Part shown: in pieces, positions 4,536 to 35,365 of the stretch | Position numbering within the stretch: position 1 is the first letter of the stretch | Layout of the letters: each line of letters begins with the position of its first letter | Source: a virus | Reading direction: 5' to 3' (one strand) | Length of the DNA: 35,365 nt | Virus genome (UHGV): UHGV-2010328 | Position numbers and translations under genes: made by a program | The notes under the pieces: generated by a model | Told to the model about the DNA's origin: nothing | What the model saw: only the letters and a program-made list of their open reading frames with translations | Database searches by the model: none

Positions 4536-5047
4536 TGGCTGTGCCAAAACATCTTCGCTTTTTTACGCTGTTTGTGGATGGTGAAAACGAAGTGGGTAAG
4601 GTGACGTCCGTCACTCTGCCTAAGCTGACGCGCAAAACCGACAGCTACCGGGGGGGCGGCATGATGGGTGCGGTAAGTATTGATCTCGGTCTGGAAGACT
4701 CCGCGCTTGATGCGAGCTTTGTCATGGGGGGCGCAGTTCGTGAGCTGTTCCTTAAGTATGGCGGCACGATTGACGGCACGCTGCTGCGTTTTGCGGGTGA
4801 ATACTACACCGATGCAGAAAGTGACCTGTATGAAGTCGAAATGCGCGGACGTGTGACGGAAATTGATATGGGGGAAGCCAAACAGGGCGAAGCCACATCA
4901 CACACTTACGCCATTAAAAACACCTACTACAAGCTGAGTGTTAACGATCGCCCGTTGTGGGAGATTGACCTGCTGAACTTCATTTACCGGAAGGACGGCA
5001 AGGACATTGTGCCCGATCGCATCCGTTCCGCGCTCGGGCTTGGCTGA
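4535..5047 (+). CDS. FII: tail tube protein (gpFII-like)
   Basis: 170 aa. ATG overlaps the FI stop (TGATG). Confidence 0.85.
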   Translation: MAVPKHLRFFTLFVDGENEVGKVTSVTLPKLTRKTDSYRGGGMMGAVSIDLGLEDSALDASFVMGGAVRELFLKYGGTIDGTLLRFAGEYYTDAESDLYEVEMRGRVTEIDMGEAKQGEATSHTYAIKNTYYKLSVNDRPLWEIDLLNFIYRKDGKDIVPDRIRSALGLG

Positions 5048-25831: not shown

Positions 25832-26209
25832 TTATCCGCGTATATACCTAAAGGACTGAGGTGGTACAGCGCCAGGTATCAATTCATTAAGTGGAATTGG
25901 AGTATCATAGCGCAGAGGGTTTTTTACTTCTATTGCGAATCCCTTGTCTCTTTCTGAAAAATATTCATCAAAAAAATCCCGCGTAATACCTGCATACTTT
26001 TTTGTCATATTCCATAATTCATCTGGCTGAGATGACAAAACCTTTTCAATTTCAAACTCACCAATTACCTTTCCGACGGGCATTGTTGCATAAATAATAA
26101 CCGCTCGGACTTCTTTGTTCCGAAAAATTGTCTTCCTGAATTCGAATTTTTTATATCCATTTAAAATGGATTCAGCGAACTCTGGTTTAATCGACAATAA
26201 AATTTTCAT
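25832..26209 (-). CDS. stand-alone ASCH/PUA-like domain protein (125 aa)
   Basis: MKILLSIKPEFAESILNGYKKFEFRK... matches the ASCH-type N-terminal motif. ATG 26209..26207 overlaps the upstream gene by 23 nt. AT-rich. Confidence 0.55.
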   Translation of the reverse strand: MKILLSIKPEFAESILNGYKKFEFRKTIFRNKEVRAVIIYATMPVGKVIGEFEIEKVLSSQPDELWNMTKKYAGITRDFFDEYFSERDKGFAIEVKNPLRYDTPIPLNELIPGAVPPQSFRYIRG

Positions 26210-27242
26210 TAACCTTTCCCGCGCTTAAAACAGCTTTGAAGTGAACATCACTTAACGTGAAGAACCCTGAATAGCTTGGAGTATAACCTAAAATACTCAA
26301 CAATTCATCTCTAATTATTCTTTTTTGCAAAGGGAAATTGTAAGTTAACTTAATTACATGTGGAGGATAACATCTGCTATAATAAGCATATAATTCTTCA
26401 TCAGAAAAAATACTGGCGCCTCCACAATAAGACTTAAACTCATCATATGATAAAAATTCTCGAATGTTTTTATACTCTTGTAATGTACAAACAGAAGTAA
26501 CCACCGACCGATATTTCGCCGCTCCCTGTCCATCTGTCGTTCGATAAATAATTATATTATCTCCTGGCTGAAGAAGCTCCATGCCTTTCATCGCGCCAAT
26601 ATATATCTTATGAATACTATTAGTATAAGTAACATCTTCTAAAATAGAATCATTTTCATTTTTTAAAATTGACTCCGGGAAAAGCCTTGAATGAAACTCA
26701 GGTTTAATGGCTAATAAAAAATTTCTTCCATTCATTTTTATCATAGGATAATTATTATAAAATGATGCTGCTGATGGCTTCCAGTTAAAATCCTTAAAGT
26801 AGACACCTTCACAACCGTTTTCCGTCTCAAGATTTTTTCTTGAACACAATTTAAAACCATAGCGTTCAAGTAAACGAATCAATCCTTGATGTTTGTCAAA
26901 GATAGTAACGTACACTTCCTGAATATCATGAGGCATTGCAAAGTCAAATATTTTTCTTACAAATCTCTCCCCCATTTTCGTTCCACGAGCATCAATTTTA
27001 AATGTTCCGCATTTAAGACGTTTTTTCATAGGGAAAGATGGGGTCATGTCATTTAATTCCTCATTTTCAATTTTGAGGTATAAAAAACCATCTATTTTCC
27101 CATAATCATCATAAGATACGTATGCTTTCTCATTTCTTTTCTTTAAGAACCAGCTTTCAAAAGTTGGGTAGTCATTTTTAAGCGAGTCAAAAAAAACATC
27201 TGAGAGGTCAACCTTCCCAAATTCGACATAACTAAGAGACAT
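26187..27242 (-). CDS. GNAT-like acetyltransferase fused to a C-terminal ASCH/PUA-like domain (351 aa)
   Basis: ATG 27242..27240 with AGGA RBS (ORF-track 5' extension rejected). N-terminal half has GNAT-like core motifs (ARGTKMGERFVRKIF ... EVYVTIFDKHQGLIRLLERYGFK); C-terminal half has ...FLLAIKPEFHSRLF... like the downstream ASCH-like protein. Domain assignment is by eye. Confidence 0.5.
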   Translation of the reverse strand: MSLSYVEFGKVDLSDVFFDSLKNDYPTFESWFLKKRNEKAYVSYDDYGKIDGFLYLKIENEELNDMTPSFPMKKRLKCGTFKIDARGTKMGERFVRKIFDFAMPHDIQEVYVTIFDKHQGLIRLLERYGFKLCSRKNLETENGCEGVYFKDFNWKPSAASFYNNYPMIKMNGRNFLLAIKPEFHSRLFPESILKNENDSILEDVTYTNSIHKIYIGAMKGMELLQPGDNIIIYRTTDGQGAAKYRSVVTSVCTLQEYKNIREFLSYDEFKSYCGGASIFSDEELYAYYSRCYPPHVIKLTYNFPLQKRIIRDELLSILGYTPSYSGFFTLSDVHFKAVLSAGKVNENFIVD

Positions 27243-27354
27243 TGTGCCATCCTTTTCAGTAGGTATTTTGCAAAAAACGTTACTGTATCTCAAAATATAT
27301 GTAAATAAACTTAGATCAAAAAAATGCTTACTAACGCTTTGTCTTACCGGGGCT

Positions 27355-27428
27355 GTGTGTGTCGAAATACTCGCTTAGTGGCAGGGTGTCAACTACATCT
27401 ACCTCTTCTGGTGCAATATCAGACTCTG
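27355..27428 (-). pseudogene. parM-derived remnant (about 72 bp, roughly 80% identical to parM 28399-28470)
   Basis: tgtgtcgaaatactcgct is identical to parM 28405-28422, with similarity continuing about 50 bp. Lies between parR and the GNAT gene with no intact reading frame. Confidence 0.5.
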
Positions 27429-27455
27429 CCCGGCGCAGAGTATTCCGACTGTTGG

Positions 27456-27767
27456 TCATTGAGGGAACATGGCCTGTATATTCTTTTTCATCTGTGTAAC
27501 GTTGTTATTCTCTGTATCCTGCTGTGGTGATTTATTTCGTGGCGTTGGTGTGAGCGGCTGACTGAATCCGCCTTCAGGCCATTCAGCCAGCCAGTAAGCA
27601 AAGGCAGGATCGGTTTTGATGAGTGCCAGTCCAGCCAGAAATGCCGCGCGTTGCGCGCGGCTGCGTTCGGAGGCTGGCAGGTTGTCGAGATAATTACACG
27701 CTTTCCGTTCACTCTTGACGGCTGCTGGCTTCAGATAGAAACTTATTCTTCTGGTTAATGTCGCCAT
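27456..27767 (-). CDS. parR: ParR/StbB-like partition adaptor protein
   Basis: ATG 27767..27765 with AGGAG RBS (ORF-track extension rejected); 103 aa, MATLTRRISFYLKPAAV...ERSRAQRAAFLAGLALI resembles R1 ParR. Immediately downstream of parM. Confidence 0.7.
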   Translation of the reverse strand: MATLTRRISFYLKPAAVKSERKACNYLDNLPASERSRAQRAAFLAGLALIKTDPAFAYWLAEWPEGGFSQPLTPTPRNKSPQQDTENNNVTQMKKNIQAMFPQ

Positions 27768-27771
27768 GGGG

Positions 27772-28731
27772 TTACTCCTTATCCATAGCGTACAGACCGT
27801 TAACCAGAGCAAACTGTGGCACCCCGTCCGCGATGAAAGTCGCATTAACTCCGCAGGCTTCGCGGATCGCGGGTGCCACAATCTCCGCCCCGCCACCGAC
27901 AACCATCACCCGCCCATACCCCGAAAAACCAGCCAGCGCGCGGATCACGCGTTGTTTCAGTGTTTCCTCCTTTTCACGAATAACTGCCATCAGGCTGGCG
28001 TAATGTGCGTTATTGTGGATGTGCTGGCGCAGCCAGGCTTCATCGTGGCGATGTTCGATAATGGTATTGGCGATGTGGTGGCTGGTACGCATACCGTTGG
28101 TGGCCATCACCGACAGAACGGCATCAGCCATCAGAGAAACGCCTACGTGTGGATCGCAAAACACCTGGCTGATACCTGCCAGTTGTCCCTGAACCTTTGC
28201 CACATCCAGCGTGGTTCCGCCTAAATCCACAATCAGCAGGGATTCAAACGGACTCATGTCAGCCAGTGCCTTAAAGCCAGCCGGAATGGATTCAGGCATA
28301 ACCCGTACGTTACGGATAGTGAATGCTTCGCCGTTCTGGTACTCCACCGGGCGTATGACGTTCGCTTTTTTGCGGTTGATGTTGGCCATGTCCGGTTGTG
28401 CGTTTGTGTCGAAATACTCGCTCAGTGGCAGGGTGACAACCACATCCACCTCCTGTGGCGTGATGCCTGATTTGACCAGCGCGTGATGAATGGCAATGAC
28501 ATTCACATCGCTGTACTGGTATTGCGTGTCGGTCGTCTGGACAAAGCGATCGCTGACCGGATCAAAACCATAGCGCACGCCATCAAGCATGTAGTTCGCG
28601 GGCTGCATGCCACCGAACGGCGCAGACCATTCCGATTTGAAGCTGTTCGGGCTGATGGCGTTGCGGCGTTCGCCGTTCTCAGTCCATGCCAGCTTGATGT
28701 TGGTGGAGCCGTCGTCGATACAAATTTTCAT
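27772..28731 (-). CDS. parM: ParM/StbA-like actin-type partition ATPase
   Basis: 319 aa, MKICIDDGSTNIKLAW...ISPNSFK...YSDVNVIAIHHAL...VMPESIPAG...DLGGTTLD...VVGGGAE; close to plasmid R1 ParM throughout by recollection. Confidence 0.85.
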   Translation of the reverse strand: MKICIDDGSTNIKLAWTENGERRNAISPNSFKSEWSAPFGGMQPANYMLDGVRYGFDPVSDRFVQTTDTQYQYSDVNVIAIHHALVKSGITPQEVDVVVTLPLSEYFDTNAQPDMANINRKKANVIRPVEYQNGEAFTIRNVRVMPESIPAGFKALADMSPFESLLIVDLGGTTLDVAKVQGQLAGISQVFCDPHVGVSLMADAVLSVMATNGMRTSHHIANTIIEHRHDEAWLRQHIHNNAHYASLMAVIREKEETLKQRVIRALAGFSGYGRVMVVGGGAEIVAPAIREACGVNATFIADGVPQFALVNGLYAMDKE

Positions 28732-28763
28732 GTCGATTTTCCTTATATTGATTAATTAATCGG

Positions 28764-28874
28764 TTACGGGATTTTTAAATCCCGCTTTTGCCTGTTTTGT
28801 GCGCGCTTCATATATCGCGGCGCGTTTTTTGCTCATTTACGGGTTTTGTGAATCCCGTTTCTGTCTGTTTTTTG
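28764..28874. repeat. two 38-bp direct repeats with internal dyad symmetry (ACGGGaTTTttAAATCCCG type) upstream of parM; candidate parC centromere/operator
   Basis: 28764-28801 ttacgggatttttaaatcccgcttttgcctgttttgtg and 28837-28874 ttacgggttttgtgaatcccgtttctgtctgttttttg, 73 bp apart. The first is intergenic; the second lies in the last codons of A. Confidence 0.45.
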
Positions 28875-31648
28875 TTTCCACTGGTCAGGCTACCCCGCAG
28901 CAGGTCTGCTTTGCGGCGGGCGCGTTCAGTGGTTTCACTGATTCTCTGTGCGTGCTCTGCGTCACGAATGGCGCGCAGCATGTCAGAAAGCACGGTAACG
29001 GGGGTTTTCATGGTGTTCTGGTCCTGCTGAAGTGTGGATGCCAGGTGTGCGGCGGCTTCGGGGTCTGATGCCCCCAGCTGTTCCAGATAGCTGGCGACCG
29101 GGTTATGGCGGATCTCCGTGCTGCTTACGCCGTGATTACGGCTCAGGCGCTGCCAGAGTTGCGTGATTCGGCTGTCCGGGCGGGTATCTGGTTTGCGTAC
29201 AATTTCAAATCCCTGCGGTGCAATGATGCTGCCGTCAACGTACAGACTGCCGCCCCGTAACAGGTGCAGCATCTGTTGTTCACCGATATGCAGGCCGAGA
29301 GATTCGGCAGACTCCCGCCATTCTTTAGCGAGTAACTCGTGGTTATCAGGCAAAGGTCGCGGCTGTTTGCGGCTCTGTGTCCAGTTCTGCATTTCATCGC
29401 TGCTGTTTTTTGCCTGTTTGTCACGAAGCGAACGCATCAGCGCCCGGCGTTCGTGCCGTTTCAGTGAGCGCATCCATTCATTTACTTCAACGCCGTCAGG
29501 AAGCTGCGGCCACGGTGCTGGCCGTTCTTCCGGCTGTTCTGTTCCGTTGTTGCTCGTTTCCTGTACACGGGGACAGTTATTGCCACGAGTCCAAGGGGCG
29601 GCAGGGCCGCCCTGAAGGTCAAAACCATTTTCGCGGGCGCCGTCTTCCGCTTCCGGTTTGCGTCTTACCAGCTTCCAGTTATCTGGATGCGTGCACACAC
29701 GGGAGGATTCCCCGATGAGCGGCGACCAGATCCCGTAAATCTGTACGCTCTGTTCGCCGTAATCATTCAGCTCATCTGCGAGGTCGTAGGCGGTGCGAAT
29801 CAGGTAGTCTTTGCGTGGAACAAGTACGCCACCCTGTTTCTCAATGTAGGTGGCAAAACATCCGGCATCAGCGGCAGCGAGTACCGCGTCCATTGCGTCA
29901 TCCTTCAGCCGTTGCGGACCTTCCGGGTTGCGTGCCATCTGGCTGGCAAGGCGGCGCAGTTCACGCCACACCTGACGGGAGGGGATACCAAAGAACTGGA
30001 ACTGGCGGACCCGGTGAAGGCGCGCCCAGCCGATGGCGCGTTCCACGCTCTCGGCCATTGATTTTCCGGTTTCGTGGTCAACGCGTGGCTTGCCCGTTTT
30101 CGGGTCGATGCCATCTACGGCGCGGCTGTCCAGGTTTTTTCCGATGTAGGTCGCGATATAGCTGGTTGGTGTGCCTTTTGAGCCGTCGACATACTCCGCC
30201 TTAAAGCGCGGAGTAATATCATTGCCCAGCTCGTGGCGGTCTTCCTGAATGGCAATATCGCGGGTGATGGCCACGATGCTGTCGATTTCTTCCGGATGAG
30301 CAAAGACCATCATATGCCAGTGCACGGTGCCGTCATGGTGAGGCTCCACCGTGCGGATGCCATACCAGCGAAGACCGTCGCGGTTCAGTTTTTTGCGGAC
30401 CGCCGCAAAAAACGTGTTAACCAGGTAATCGCTGGAGTCGCGCATGGTGGCCCCGTTCCATTTGGGGTTCGGATGACCGTTCTCTGTTGTGGCGTGGTAT
30501 TTTGACGGGCAGGTGACAGTCAGAAACACCGCTTTGTCACCACGGGCTTCGGCCAGAAGTTCCAGCCCCTTCATGGTGGCCATCATTTCTGCCTTACGGT
30601 GAACCGGGTTACTTACTCCCGCGTAATACACTGTCTCGAGATCAATCGTGAAGCCGTCTTCGTTTTCCAGTTCGAAGCTCTTCAGGAAGTCGCGGGTTTT
30701 CTCGCGCTGTGCGCGAAACTCGCTTAACGCGTCCTGGCTCAGATAGGGTGATGTTTTTCTGGAAACCAGACAGGCGGCACGGAGCTGTTCTTCCCGCCAC
30801 TCGCAACGTAACAGCCACAGTTTGTGTTTCCACCATTCCGCACAGGTCAGGCGAAGGATGGCCCCCGGCAGCAGCTCCGTATCCGGTGCGTTCTTCCGGT
30901 CTTTGTCCGTTCTCAGTGCTTCGTAATGCGGCGGCATGGTGTGCAGATGTAACGCCATGCGGGCCAGCATCTGATACGCCTTCAGCGCAATTTTCATGGT
31001 CAGCTCGCCATCGGTCGCGCCAAAGTTATCGCAGAGTTTTTCGAAGGTGCTGCTGAACATCGCCGCCGTCATGGTGGCCAGCGTCTGTATCTGGTGTTTG
31101 TTGAGCTGCGGCAGGTAAAGCAAATCGTCCAGGCGTTCGCGTCCGGCAAGGGAGCGATAACCCGGTGTCAGCCAGCGGTGATCGGTGCGGTCCAGACGTT
31201 CGAATATTTTGCGCAGGGTTCCGCGCGCGTAGCGTTCAGCCTGCCAGCTCTTTTTGCCTTTCTGGCGATCGGCTTCCTGTTTTTTGCGCAGGAAAGAGAG
31301 GTGGCGGCTCAGAGGTTCACGCAGATAAACGGGAAGCACCTTCAGTGTGGCAAAAGCACGGGCCACCGGGTCTTGTTCTGTTGCCTGACGCTTATTGATG
31401 ATGTTCTGTGCCAGCTTTTCACGCTGTCCGGCTTCCTCAAGGGATGCCATGAGTCTTTTACCCACGGTGGATTGTGCGAAAAAGGCTTCCTCCTTCGCTT
31501 CCTGTTCTTCCAGAGCCTTTTTGTCTGCCTCAAGGTAGTAACGGATGGCGCGTTGCAGGTCGGTTTCAGTTTCCTGCCTGTGCTCCGTAAATCTGGCCGG
31601 ATCAATGGCTGGTCGTGGTTCATTCCAGCTCCATGCAAACTCACTCAT
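28808..31648 (-). CDS. A: replication initiation protein A (rolling-circle nickase, gpA-like)
   Basis: ATG 31648..31646 overlaps the upstream stop (ATGA). 946 aa with HUH-type motif (GTVHWHMMVFAH) and paired tyrosines YIATY typical of P2 A. Longer than P2 A (about 760 aa). Confidence 0.85.
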   Translation of the reverse strand: MSEFAWSWNEPRPAIDPARFTEHRQETETDLQRAIRYYLEADKKALEEQEAKEEAFFAQSTVGKRLMASLEEAGQREKLAQNIINKRQATEQDPVARAFATLKVLPVYLREPLSRHLSFLRKKQEADRQKGKKSWQAERYARGTLRKIFERLDRTDHRWLTPGYRSLAGRERLDDLLYLPQLNKHQIQTLATMTAAMFSSTFEKLCDNFGATDGELTMKIALKAYQMLARMALHLHTMPPHYEALRTDKDRKNAPDTELLPGAILRLTCAEWWKHKLWLLRCEWREEQLRAACLVSRKTSPYLSQDALSEFRAQREKTRDFLKSFELENEDGFTIDLETVYYAGVSNPVHRKAEMMATMKGLELLAEARGDKAVFLTVTCPSKYHATTENGHPNPKWNGATMRDSSDYLVNTFFAAVRKKLNRDGLRWYGIRTVEPHHDGTVHWHMMVFAHPEEIDSIVAITRDIAIQEDRHELGNDITPRFKAEYVDGSKGTPTSYIATYIGKNLDSRAVDGIDPKTGKPRVDHETGKSMAESVERAIGWARLHRVRQFQFFGIPSRQVWRELRRLASQMARNPEGPQRLKDDAMDAVLAAADAGCFATYIEKQGGVLVPRKDYLIRTAYDLADELNDYGEQSVQIYGIWSPLIGESSRVCTHPDNWKLVRRKPEAEDGARENGFDLQGGPAAPWTRGNNCPRVQETSNNGTEQPEERPAPWPQLPDGVEVNEWMRSLKRHERRALMRSLRDKQAKNSSDEMQNWTQSRKQPRPLPDNHELLAKEWRESAESLGLHIGEQQMLHLLRGGSLYVDGSIIAPQGFEIVRKPDTRPDSRITQLWQRLSRNHGVSSTEIRHNPVASYLEQLGASDPEAAAHLASTLQQDQNTMKTPVTVLSDMLRAIRDAEHAQRISETTERARRKADLLRGSLTSGNKKQTETGFTKPVNEQKTRRDI

Positions 31649-33972: not shown

Positions 33973-34017
33973 GTGTACTTATAAGTACACCTTATGCGCA
34001 AGCTTAGTGTACTTATA
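33973..34017. promoter_or_regulatory. immunity switch region: perfect 18-bp palindrome gtgtacttataagtacac (33973-33990) plus direct repeat gtgtacttata (34007-34017)
   Basis: Between the divergent cox-like and C genes. Half-site repeats 34 bp apart, typical of repressor operators overlapping early/repressor promoters. Confidence 0.55.
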
Positions 34018-34029
34018 GGAACACTGTCA

Positions 34030-34338
34030 ATGCTTATCGGTGAAAAAATTAGAGTGATTCGTGAATCAGAGGATTTAACGCGCGAAGAATTTTGCGGCCT
34101 GATTGATGTGCCTGTCGGCACTTTGCGTCGTTATGAAACGGGGCGGATTGAAAACATAGGGGGCGAAGTGCTTATCAAGATTGTTAATCACCCTCGCTTT
34201 TTTAAGTACATGAATTGGCTTATGACAGGAAAAACGAATGAGGCTGCTGGGCAGATCAGTCCCTCTCTCTCCCCTGATGGGCCAGAAAACACATCGTCTT
34301 CTCAAAAGCCCCGCAAGACTGGTACACAGCCCGGCTAA
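34030..34338 (+). CDS. C: immunity repressor C (HTH, P2 C-like)
   Basis: 102 aa from ATG 34030 (MLIGEKIRVIRESEDLTREEF...GTLRRYETG...), similar in length and C-terminal region to P2 C. An alternative ATG at 33994 would overlap the operators. Confidence 0.75.
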   Translation: MLIGEKIRVIRESEDLTREEFCGLIDVPVGTLRRYETGRIENIGGEVLIKIVNHPRFFKYMNWLMTGKTNEAAGQISPSLSPDGPENTSSSQKPRKTGTQPG

Positions 34339-34387
34339 TCATGGAACGCTGGGGGCATGGTGGTCTTGTAACGCTGGGGTTTCACGA

Positions 34388-35365
34388 ATGAGCATAAAAT
34401 CAATTCCGGGAGGGTATCTTCTTGACATGCGCCCGGAGGGGCGTAAAGGCAAACGCATTCGTAAAAAATTTAAAACGAAATCGGATGCAGTTTTATATGA
34501 GCGGTGGGTGCTGGCGCAACAGCATAACAATGAGTGGAAAGGAAACTCTATTGATCGCCGTCCTCTGTCAGTGCTTATTGACTTGTGGTGGAAATACCAC
34601 GGCCAGCTAATGAAGTCAGGGCATAACACGCGCCTTAAATTGCTGCGCTTGAGTGAGGCAATGGATGACCCGTGCGTGCATAAACTTAATACAACGATGC
34701 TCACCGAGCTACGTGTGTCCAGGATAGAGCAGGGGATACAGCCCAGCACCATAAATCGAGAGATTGGGGCGTTAAGCGCGATGTTTACCGCACTCATCTC
34801 ATCCGGCCATTTTCTTAACGATAACCCCGTTCAAGGCCTTAAAGGAATGAAGGTTAACGAGCGCGAAATGGGATATCTGAGTAAGTCTGAATGTGTTCAG
34901 TTGCTGGATGCACTGGCTGAAAATCCCGATGAGCGGCTGGCTGTCGAAATCCTTCTGTCGACCGGGGCGCGATGGGGCGAGGTAGCGGCACTGGAGCAAC
35001 GCCGCGTTCTGCATTGTCGAATCACTTTTTCAAAAACGAAGAACAGCAAAAACCGTACCGTTCCTATTTCTGAAAGCCTGTTTGAAAAGATCAAAAAACG
35101 GGGCGGGAAACTGGTGTTTCCGACGCTGGATTATTCATTGGTTCGCGATGTCATCAAAACGGTCGCACCTGATGTTCCTGACGGCCAGGCTGTTCATGCG
35201 CTGCGCCACACCTTCGCCAGTCATTTCATGATGAACGGTGGCAATATTCTGACGCTCCAGAAAATTCTGGGGCACGCAAAGATTCAGACAACGATGATTT
35301 ATGCCCATCTTGCGCCGGATTACCTGCAGGATGCGGTGAGGTTTAATCCACTAGGAGGTGCTTAA
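34388..35365 (+). CDS. int: tyrosine integrase (P2 Int-like)
   Basis: 325 aa from ATG 34388, with catalytic-region motifs ...GARWGE..., HALRHTFASH and ...IYAHL.... Last gene of the element, downstream of C as in P2. Confidence 0.9.
   Translation: MSIKSIPGGYLLDMRPEGRKGKRIRKKFKTKSDAVLYERWVLAQQHNNEWKGNSIDRRPLSVLIDLWWKYHGQLMKSGHNTRLKLLRLSEAMDDPCVHKLNTTMLTELRVSRIEQGIQPSTINREIGALSAMFTALISSGHFLNDNPVQGLKGMKVNEREMGYLSKSECVQLLDALAENPDERLAVEILLSTGARWGEVAALEQRRVLHCRITFSKTKNSKNRTVPISESLFEKIKKRGGKLVFPTLDYSLVRDVIKTVAPDVPDGQAVHALRHTFASHFMMNGGNILTLQKILGHAKIQTTMIYAHLAPDYLQDAVRFNPLGGA

Follow-up and report, generated by a model that had tools for sequence, protein, structure and literature searches.

Why a phage that integrates into the chromosome of its host should carry a plasmid-type partition cassette is the question raised by UHGV-2010328, a viral genome of 35,365 nucleotides (this whole stretch is hereafter called the window). 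On its minus strand, an actin-like parM gene and a parR gene follow gpA, which encodes a P2-type rolling-circle replication endonuclease. The window is a Xuanwuvirus (Peduoviridae, P88-like), and an integrase gene and a helix-turn-helix (HTH) repressor-like gene were both found in it, as the preliminary description of this DNA had stated. That description had called an actin-type segregation system unexpected in such a phage. It turned out to be standard in P88-like phages, to be present in 1304 of 5426 complete Escherichia coli genomes (24%) and to be annotated already. Here, we propose that the cassette is an intact type II segregation module that has been retained by a clade of P2-like phages and acts on a transient circular form of the phage genome; from the analyses below we give this reading a probability of about 0.5.

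The cassette was noted, and the episome hypothesis raised, by Pfeifer 2021 (PMC7969092) and Rousset 2022 (PMC9122126), and the phiSM paper lists it merely as a 'fitness' gene (PMC6456863). PGAP names the products ParM and 'plasmid partitioning/stability family protein', and PHROGs also name the cassette. Hence the novelty is low, because this kind of cassette is known and the locus has been annotated and discussed; what is added here is a candidate site for the centromere or operator, evidence that the cassette is under selection and that the phage ParMs have a clade of their own, and the hypothesis of an insurance for a transient episome. The cassette, which is under strong purifying selection, is present in about a quarter of the P2-like prophages of E. 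coli. If it does act on a transient circular form, the dichotomy between integrated and plasmid states of temperate phages would become less sharp, as srpMRC made it for integrative and conjugative elements (ICEs), and the efficient lysogenisation and very low loss of such prophages could be explained.

Identity and selection of the ParM/ParR pair

The 319-amino-acid protein had been described as ParM-like, and all comparisons agreed. It matched Pfam StbA_N (1.3e-81, 272.7 bits) and the ParM C-terminal domain (1.6e-68, 230.2 bits) end to end and well over the cut-offs, and the R1 ParM structure 1mwk in the PDB over residues 2-316 (E=3.5e-92). The phosphate-binding motifs IDDGSTNIK and LIVDLGGTTLD were intact. 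Alignment to the R1 proteins, which the preliminary description had proposed as a check, gave 47% identity to the R1-type plasmid ParM over the full length by BLASTP. The ParR-like adaptor was also found where it had been predicted, after parM in the R1 order, starting 4 nucleotides past the parM stop codon. ParR matched Pfam Plasmid_stab_B (StbB/ParR family) at 1.8e-26 (92.2 bits vs a cut-off of 25), and covered PHROG 2515 'partition protein' at 103 of 103 positions. Its identity to the R1-type ParR was 42%, in the N-terminal 67 amino acids only (BLASTP), and the match to the structure of pB171 ParR (PDB 2jd3) was weak (E=0.006). Two parts of ParR were conserved across alleles and clades, namely TRRISFYLKP, the N-terminal strand, and KKNIQAMFPQ, the C-terminal tail, while the linker between them varied. 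This tail resembles the end of R1 ParR, KKNAMKLIN; the C-terminal tail of R1 ParR is the ParM-binding peptide. A search of NCBIfam yielded sub-threshold matches only, and PADLOC had no family for either ParM or ParR. Since the Pfam, PDB, BLASTP and PHROG matches agree, we concluded that the identification is correct and that the cassette is a type II (R1/NR1 stb-type) ParM/ParR gene pair in an integrase-bearing P2-like prophage.

The locus has the same order as R1 ParMRC (parA) and NR1/R100 stbAB, namely cis site, parM and parR, with repeats upstream of parM, and it shares with R1 the Pfam domains and nucleotide-binding motifs of ParM, the ribbon-helix-helix region of ParR and a similar KKN-hydrophobic tail. 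It differs in that the R1 replicon is a low-copy theta plasmid, whereas the window is an integrating rolling-circle P2-like phage, and in the length of ParR (116-117 amino acids in R1, 103 in the phage). Essentially the same locus is found in P88 and other Xuanwuvirus genomes, to which the region is 94-96% identical: ParM is 98-99% identical, and the upstream repeats and the layout of gpA, parM, parR, cargo and portal are the same, while the parR allele class and the downstream cargo differ. This layout, with ogr or portal beyond the cargo, was shared by P88 and by P2-like prophages of E. coli, E. albertii, Salmonella, Citrobacter, Plesiomonas, Hafnia, Serratia and Enterobacter. In the window, portal and terminase lie on the opposite strand.

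We compared the substitution rates of the two genes with those of related loci. Against nine of them, the ratio of nonsynonymous to synonymous rates (dN/dS) was 0.03-0.11 for parM, with dS of 0.06-0.21. For parR, dN/dS was 0.14-0.36. All 12 close loci had intact reading frames, as did five distant ones. These values indicate that ParM is under strong purifying selection.

A scan of genome contigs for ParM gave three near-identical loci, and diverged relatives were obtained by protein search followed by contig look-up. There was a gap in ParM identity between the E. coli clade (91-99%) and plasmid ParMs (about 52% or less), and proteins with 54-62% identity fell into it. Wherever the context of such a protein was examined (in Plesiomonas, Hafnia, Serratia, Enterobacter and a metagenomic contig), its gene occupied this position in a P2-like prophage, and two ParMs at 49-50% identity stood in plasmid-like and ICE-like contexts. 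In a neighbour-joining tree, the phage-context ParMs formed one clade (16 of 107 sequences), with R1 and the plasmid-like and ICE-like loci outside. The phage ParMs differ from R1 ParM in forming a separate clade, and they share no more than about 52% identity with any plasmid ParM. Between divergent P2-like phages, ParM identity was 54-62%, compared with 32-57% for gpA and 30-47% for portal, and the ranking of loci by identity differed among the three proteins. Because ParM is better conserved than gpA and portal, the rankings differ and the clade is separate, the cassette behaves as a phage-adapted module that is exchanged among P2-like phages and was not recently derived from a plasmid.

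The preliminary description had also allowed that the cassette might be hitch-hiking cargo, that is, a decaying plasmid-derived passenger without function for phage or host. One natural clean deletion, a relic of a second parM next to the cassette and the shortening of ParR relative to plasmid ParRs would all suit such a passenger. In the deletion (L006, NZ_CP115358.1 1608055-1618152), 1394 bp comprising the proximal repeat, parM and parR were lost relative to the closest relative, and the prophage is otherwise L004-like; the junction is at position ~4985-5006 of the locus, gpA and the distal repeat are kept, and an ead/Ea22-like gene lies directly past the gpA stop codon. Such losses are rare, judged from a rank-spread of the E. 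coli matches, of which more than about 96% have kept parM. The low parM dN/dS and the constant position in divergent P2-like phages disfavour a passenger, and the intact frames in close and distant loci and the monophyly of the phage clade across several enterobacterial genera and Plesiomonas also speak against it. Hence neutral decay is very improbable and largely refuted by the selection data.

Two dyads upstream of parM

Two 38-bp direct repeats, each with an internal inverted repeat and 73 bp apart, had been noticed in the preliminary description. A brute-force comparison confirmed them: 31 of the 38 positions were identical and the starts were 73 bp apart, whereas 60 shuffles of these 350 bp yielded no pair better than 25 of 38, indicating that the repeats are non-random. 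A default-seed repeat search had missed the pair because it contains no exact seed of 9 nucleotides. Both copies precede parM, as described, but the distal one is not intergenic and lies in the 3′ end of gpA, within its last 22 codons. The proximal dyad is perfect (CGGGATTT-TT-AAATCCCG).

Both repeats contain the core GGG-N10-CCC. Measured from the parM ATG, the distal and proximal cores are at -125 and -52 in the window (spacing 73 bp), at -131 and -59 in the Plesiomonas locus L014 (72 bp) and at -128 and -55 in the Hafnia locus L015 (73 bp), and this pattern is nearly absent elsewhere in the 2.4 kb around each of the three loci. L014 and L015 keep the pair although their ParM identity is only 62%. 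In a four-way alignment of the window, P88, Plesiomonas and Hafnia, the invariant columns clustered on GGGA, CCC, CGGG, CCC and an ATTAAT box that follows the proximal dyad, and the ~50 bp separating the dyads were unconserved. Among the 12 close (E. coli-clade) loci, the half-sites were nearly invariant, and so was a 5′ A-rich block, AACAGNCANAANCGGGA, while the spacers within the dyads varied. Because the pair, its spacing and its distance to parM recur at 62% ParM identity, we regard the dyad pair as the best candidate for the parC site or operator. This conserved two-dyad site is also a small and concrete target for experiments.

The preliminary description had suggested that the repeats act as a centromere or autoregulatory operator and had pointed to 11-bp parC iterons as something to look for. 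The recurrence of the pair favours the first suggestion, but the site is not R1-like and such iterons were absent. No tandem or iteron array was detected by TRF in 27300-29300, and neither the R1-type AAACCC iterons nor the TGTATTTTTC iterons of L009 and L010 were found upstream of the window parM. The upstream regions of three plasmid parM loci that we compared have 10-11-bp iterons flanking a clear promoter. An R1-type parC iteron array was ruled out by these two analyses. In R1, the cis site consists of two sets of five direct 11-bp AAACCC-type iterons around a clear promoter, whereas the phage has two dyads 73 bp apart, one of them within gpA.

Could the repeats be terminators, RNA hairpins or gpA-related sites rather than ParR sites? 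On the plus strand, both copies have the form of a hairpin followed by a T-rich run, and 28767-28784 was flagged as terminator-like; in the mRNA sense, a folding energy of -11.7 kcal/mol was obtained for the proximal copy, and the distal copy stays in gpA where parMR has been deleted (L006). However, the terminator-like orientation is antisense to all neighbouring genes, and the four terminator-like matches on that strand were no excess over the 2.7 expected from shuffles. The Plesiomonas and Hafnia copies are without the T-run and the strong stem: their GGG/CCC half-sites and 10-nucleotide spacing persist with stems of 3-4 bp, some of which have z-scores near background, and the position of the dyads relative to the parM ATG is conserved. 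We folded eight dyad segments, namely the two dyads of the window on both strands and both dyads of L014 and L015. The proximal copy of the window alone gave a strong hairpin, and the others gave stems of 3-5 bp with a 10-nucleotide loop. RNA structure was therefore rejected as the conserved feature of the dyads. Since only one of the eight segments folds strongly, a protein site is favoured, and what is conserved is two inverted half-sites spaced by one helical turn, as in a protein-binding site. A search of the whole window against Rfam at the gathering threshold gave no match. We consider it unlikely that the repeats are something other than ParR sites.

A different arrangement was seen in a Serratia/Enterobacter subclade (L017, L018 and L025). 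From about -135 to -1 of parM, these loci have 19-bp inverted arms, GGGAAC...AGAAAAAT and ATTTTTCT...GTTCCC, about 27 bp apart, and also a GCCGTTTAAACGGC-type palindrome. This layout is conserved between loci with different upstream genes, and the cis region accompanies parMR where the upstream gene differs (L017 vs L018 and L025). The ParR strand is TRR(I/V)SFYL in the three lineages that share the dyads and NRKISFYL in the Serratia/Enterobacter subclade. This co-occurrence of strand type and cis layout fits recognition of the candidate sites by ParR. At a finer level, no co-variation of the parR allele with the dyad sequence was found.

The ATTAAT box was invariant in the alignment of the window, P88, Plesiomonas and Hafnia. 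Expression of parMR may start from a weak promoter overlapping the proximal dyad, or may depend on read-through from gpA.

Physical state of the phage and role of the cassette

Matches in the complete E. coli genomes occupied 1444 places, of which 1442 were chromosomal and two were on plasmid records, with up to three copies per genome. An integrase was present in every relative examined with its lysogeny end in view. PLSDB has one circular replicon of phage size, NZ_CP148288.1 (L007, L021; 34,461 bp), which comes from an E. coli isolate of a cat. It corresponds to a complete P88-like phage and carries integrase, parMR and hok together with a com/methyltransferase pair. In a sister isolate of human origin, Z1323HEC0067, a copy of this phage that is 100% identical over the 4.5 kb compared lies in the chromosome. 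The circular record is compatible with spontaneous induction or a carrier state, and plasmid maintenance is not established by it. The other 'plasmid' records with matches in PLSDB were mostly of 227 kb to 1.4 Mb, and one of 26.8 kb matched part of the query.

As a side observation, a 226-kb contig labelled Vagococcus sp. WN89Y (L012, NZ_JBQPOM010000071.1) carries an E. coli-type gpA-parM-parR locus with a 97% identical ParM; this Firmicute-labelled contig is most likely a contamination or an assembly mislabelling.

Pfeifer 2021 and Rousset 2022 suggested a true phage-plasmid lifestyle, in which integration would alternate with stable plasmid carriage and ParMRC would serve for partition. The circular 34.4-kb record of a whole phage and the presence on the phage of hok, a plasmid-type addiction gene, are in line with this. 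The phage-plasmid D6 does have a ParM homologue (47.5% identity). For an autonomous extrachromosomal prophage, however, the almost exclusively chromosomal location, the integrase and the single phage-sized circle in PLSDB are the wrong picture. The remaining plasmid records are too large or match in part, gpA is a rolling-circle initiator without copy-number control of the theta-plasmid type, and the circular contig is equally explained by spontaneous induction, as phiSM was reported to be spontaneously active (PMC6456863). Stable plasmid carriage is thus improbable; this lifestyle, a role in conflicts between elements (see below) and neutral decay are all less likely than segregation of a transient circle or a replicative role like that of AlpAC.

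In the segregation that we propose, ParR dimers would bind the two GGG-N10-CCC dyads through the N-terminal β-strand. The dyads, separated by 73 bp or seven helical turns, would constitute a minimal centromere and would probably double as the cassette's operator. The C-terminal tail of ParR would capture the ends of ATP-ParM filaments, and growth of the filaments would push two circular phage genomes apart. The substrate would be the non-integrated circle and not the integrated prophage. Such a circle is present before integration after infection, following excision by Cox/Int, and during rolling-circle replication by gpA to monomer circles; P2-type replication yields monomeric circles, which are a plasmid-like substrate. 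The likely benefit is that each daughter cell would inherit a copy until integration or re-integration, so that the phage would not be lost in a transient episomal phase, and its own Hok toxin would penalise loss.

Several points weigh against this proposal. There are two dyads only, vs the 8-10 ParR-binding repeats of characterised parC sites, and therefore a full ParR ring or helix may not form. The E. coli-clade ParR (103 amino acids) is 13-31 amino acids shorter than plasmid and other phage ParRs, part of the region after the ribbon-helix-helix being missing. A consensus scan found no sigma-70 consensus promoter on the minus strand upstream of parM, and read-through from gpA could limit parMR to lytic development, when segregation may matter little. 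A single non-replicating circle cannot go to two daughters, and the benefit consequently depends on replication before integration. The cassette is dispensable for prophage carriage, as L006 has lost it cleanly. Finally, the literature searched contained no experiment on the cassette.

As a functional precedent, srpMRC of the SXT/R391 elements comes closest. There, srpMRC acts together with a toxin-antitoxin system and with rolling-circle replication driven by a relaxase, so that the excised circle is not lost (Carraro et al. 2015, PMC4489591), and srpC is made up of four short repeats, which are bound in pairs (PMC4489591). In both cases, a ParM-type locus resides in a normally integrated element with a tyrosine recombinase, and the excised circle is replicated by a rolling-circle enzyme of the HUH type; the window has the ParM-type locus together with an integrase and the adjacent gpA enzyme. 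A toxin-antitoxin system adds stability there, as hok would in the phage, and the centromere, like the candidate one of the phage, consists of a few short direct and inverted repeats without a long iteron array. The parallel drawn is a functional one. The phage proteins are close homologues of R1 ParMR and SrpM and SrpR only distant relatives of it, and srpMR is in an operon with int under the control of SetCD in an element that is conjugative and not a virus.

A more specific idea, which we regard as tentative, is the following. The cassette may be a phage-adapted 'excised-state insurance' and not a plasmid relic: the two-dyad centromere, replication by gpA and hok would together provide a short, actively segregated episomal phase before integration or after reversible excision, which would raise the yield of lysogens and prevent curing, as a viral counterpart of SXT/R391 srpMRC. 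The parR allele classes described below would then be specificity or incompatibility groups among co-resident prophages.

The main rival to segregation of a transient circle is a role in organising DNA during the lytic cycle, which we consider doubtful. Here, parMR would be co-transcribed with gpA, and ParM filaments would position or spread the replicating circles for replication or packaging. The gene arrangement is suggestive: parM begins 76 bp past gpA on the same strand, with no consensus promoter or convincing mRNA-sense terminator between them, and the distal dyad is inside gpA. The C-terminal 250 amino acids of gpA were, in the phage collection, confined to the 14 records with parMR. 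The monomeric circles of established P2 biology, a plasmid-like substrate, would also suit this role. This rival would be favoured if parMR were expressed only by read-through from gpA. On the other hand, in L018 and L025, parMR is parted from gpA by other genes and keeps its own cis region, suggesting autonomous expression. To our knowledge, all characterised ParMRC systems are autoregulated from parC, which counts against a lytic organiser. A precedent for it is AlpC/AlpA/alpS of the Corynebacterium glutamicum prophage CGP3, where an actin with an adaptor binds its own upstream sites and is required for viral DNA to be replicated efficiently (PMC4446434, PMC5539076). The two systems are alike in description, both being a prophage-encoded actin-like filament with a DNA-binding adaptor, acting in CGP3 on excised and replicating phage DNA. 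AlpC is, however, a distant actin-like protein of an actinobacterial prophage with an adaptor of another fold or family, whereas the phage ParM is a near homologue of a true segregation motor. Moreover, the demonstrated role of AlpAC is in efficient replication and transport during induction, not in inheritance.

The parR gene was far more diverged than its neighbours. In codons 1-62, dS was 0.45-0.89 and dN was 0.06-0.28, vs the dS of 0.06-0.21 in the adjacent parM. At least two old allele classes of parR were distinguished, with a break in divergence from about codon 18 (27456-27713 of the window, compared with L001-L023); the class of the window has 'SERKACNYLDNLPASERSRAQRAAF' and that of P88 'NEGEACAWLDSLTPEARKSGQRVAF'. 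The linker was hypervariable and of variable length, while the upstream dyads and, within the protein, the N-terminal strand and C-terminal tail were constant.

Such old alleles beside a near-invariant parM are reminiscent of diversification in specificity or incompatibility, and the cassette might accordingly serve in conflict, by excluding related phages, P4-like satellites and plasmids with ParMRC or by being incompatible with them. ParR might, for instance, titrate incoming DNA with the same dyads or cause its mis-segregation. Inheritance of the phage itself would then not be what the cassette serves. The cassette lies in the gpA-gpQ hotspot of anti-phage systems (PMC9122126) and adjoins the PADLOC candidate PDC-M11, and the occurrence of up to three copies per genome would also suit such a function. 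Nevertheless, neither ParM nor ParR matched any PADLOC model, the dyads did not co-vary with the parR allele, and the content of the cassette, which always abuts gpA or lies at the gpA-proximal edge, is constant, unlike that of real hotspot cargo, while the downstream cargo varies. These observations make a conflict function quite improbable.

Coordinates and neighbouring features

The coordinates of the cassette and of the features around it are collected in Table 1. Relatives have gpA annotated as a replication endonuclease of 940 amino acids. Its C-terminal 250 amino acids, which had no Pfam domain, encode the distal dyad.

Table 1 Features of the parMR region and other relevant genes in the window
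Feature	Position	Strand	Remarks
parM, 319-aa actin-fold ATPase	27772-28731	minus	stop codon 27772-27774 included
parR (stbB-type), 103-aa ribbon-helix-helix adaptor	27456-27767	minus	ATG at 27767
gpA, P2-type rolling-circle replication endonuclease, 940-955 aa	28808-31630/31675	minus	Pfam Phage_GPA 4.6e-130; stop codon 28808-28810
gpA C-terminal 250 aa	28811-29560	minus	
Proximal 38-bp repeat	28764-28801	minus	dyad core GGG-N10-CCC at 28768-28783; candidate ParR-binding site (parC/operator)
Distal 38-bp repeat	28837-28874	minus	dyad core GGG-N10-CCC at 28841-28856; second candidate ParR site
ATTAAT(T/C)AA box before parM	~28747-28760	minus	possible weak -10 element; cross-locus alignment
Shine-Dalgarno AAGGA before parM	28740-28744	minus	
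Integrase	34238-35365		Pfam Phage_integrase and Int_N
HTH repressor-like gene	33994-34338		
PDC-M11A/B, two-gene candidate defence system	25832-27293	minus	PADLOC
Relic of second parM copy	27355-27448	minus	downstream of parR, at cargo edge; outside the working system
Hok/Gef toxin gene, 46 aa	1-141	minus	Pfam HOK_GEF 4e-7; ogr/att end of prophage

With the Hok/Gef toxin gene, the phage has homologues of both stability loci of R1, parMRC and hok/sok, while no Sok RNA was detected in the window by Rfam at the gathering threshold. hok genes show enrichment in prophages (bioRxiv 10.1101/2025.08.07.668861).

The cargo in the hotspot between parR and portal consists of PDC-M11A (368 amino acids, 4.8e-131) and PDC-M11B (a 125-amino-acid ASCH-domain protein, 5.7e-51), both identified by PADLOC. 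E. coli 2015C-3121 (L002) has the same PDC-M11 cargo. At the cargo edge, the remains of another parM copy comprise two pieces, on which blastn and blastx agreed: 27355-27411 has 88% identity with 28402-28458 (parM nucleotides 274-330), and 27431-27448 has 89% identity with 28618-28635 (parM nucleotides 97-114). The longer piece measures 54-57 nucleotides, at 88-89% identity. The relic was seen solely in loci that carry the PDC-M11 cargo, and it probably marks the recombination event that introduced this cargo.

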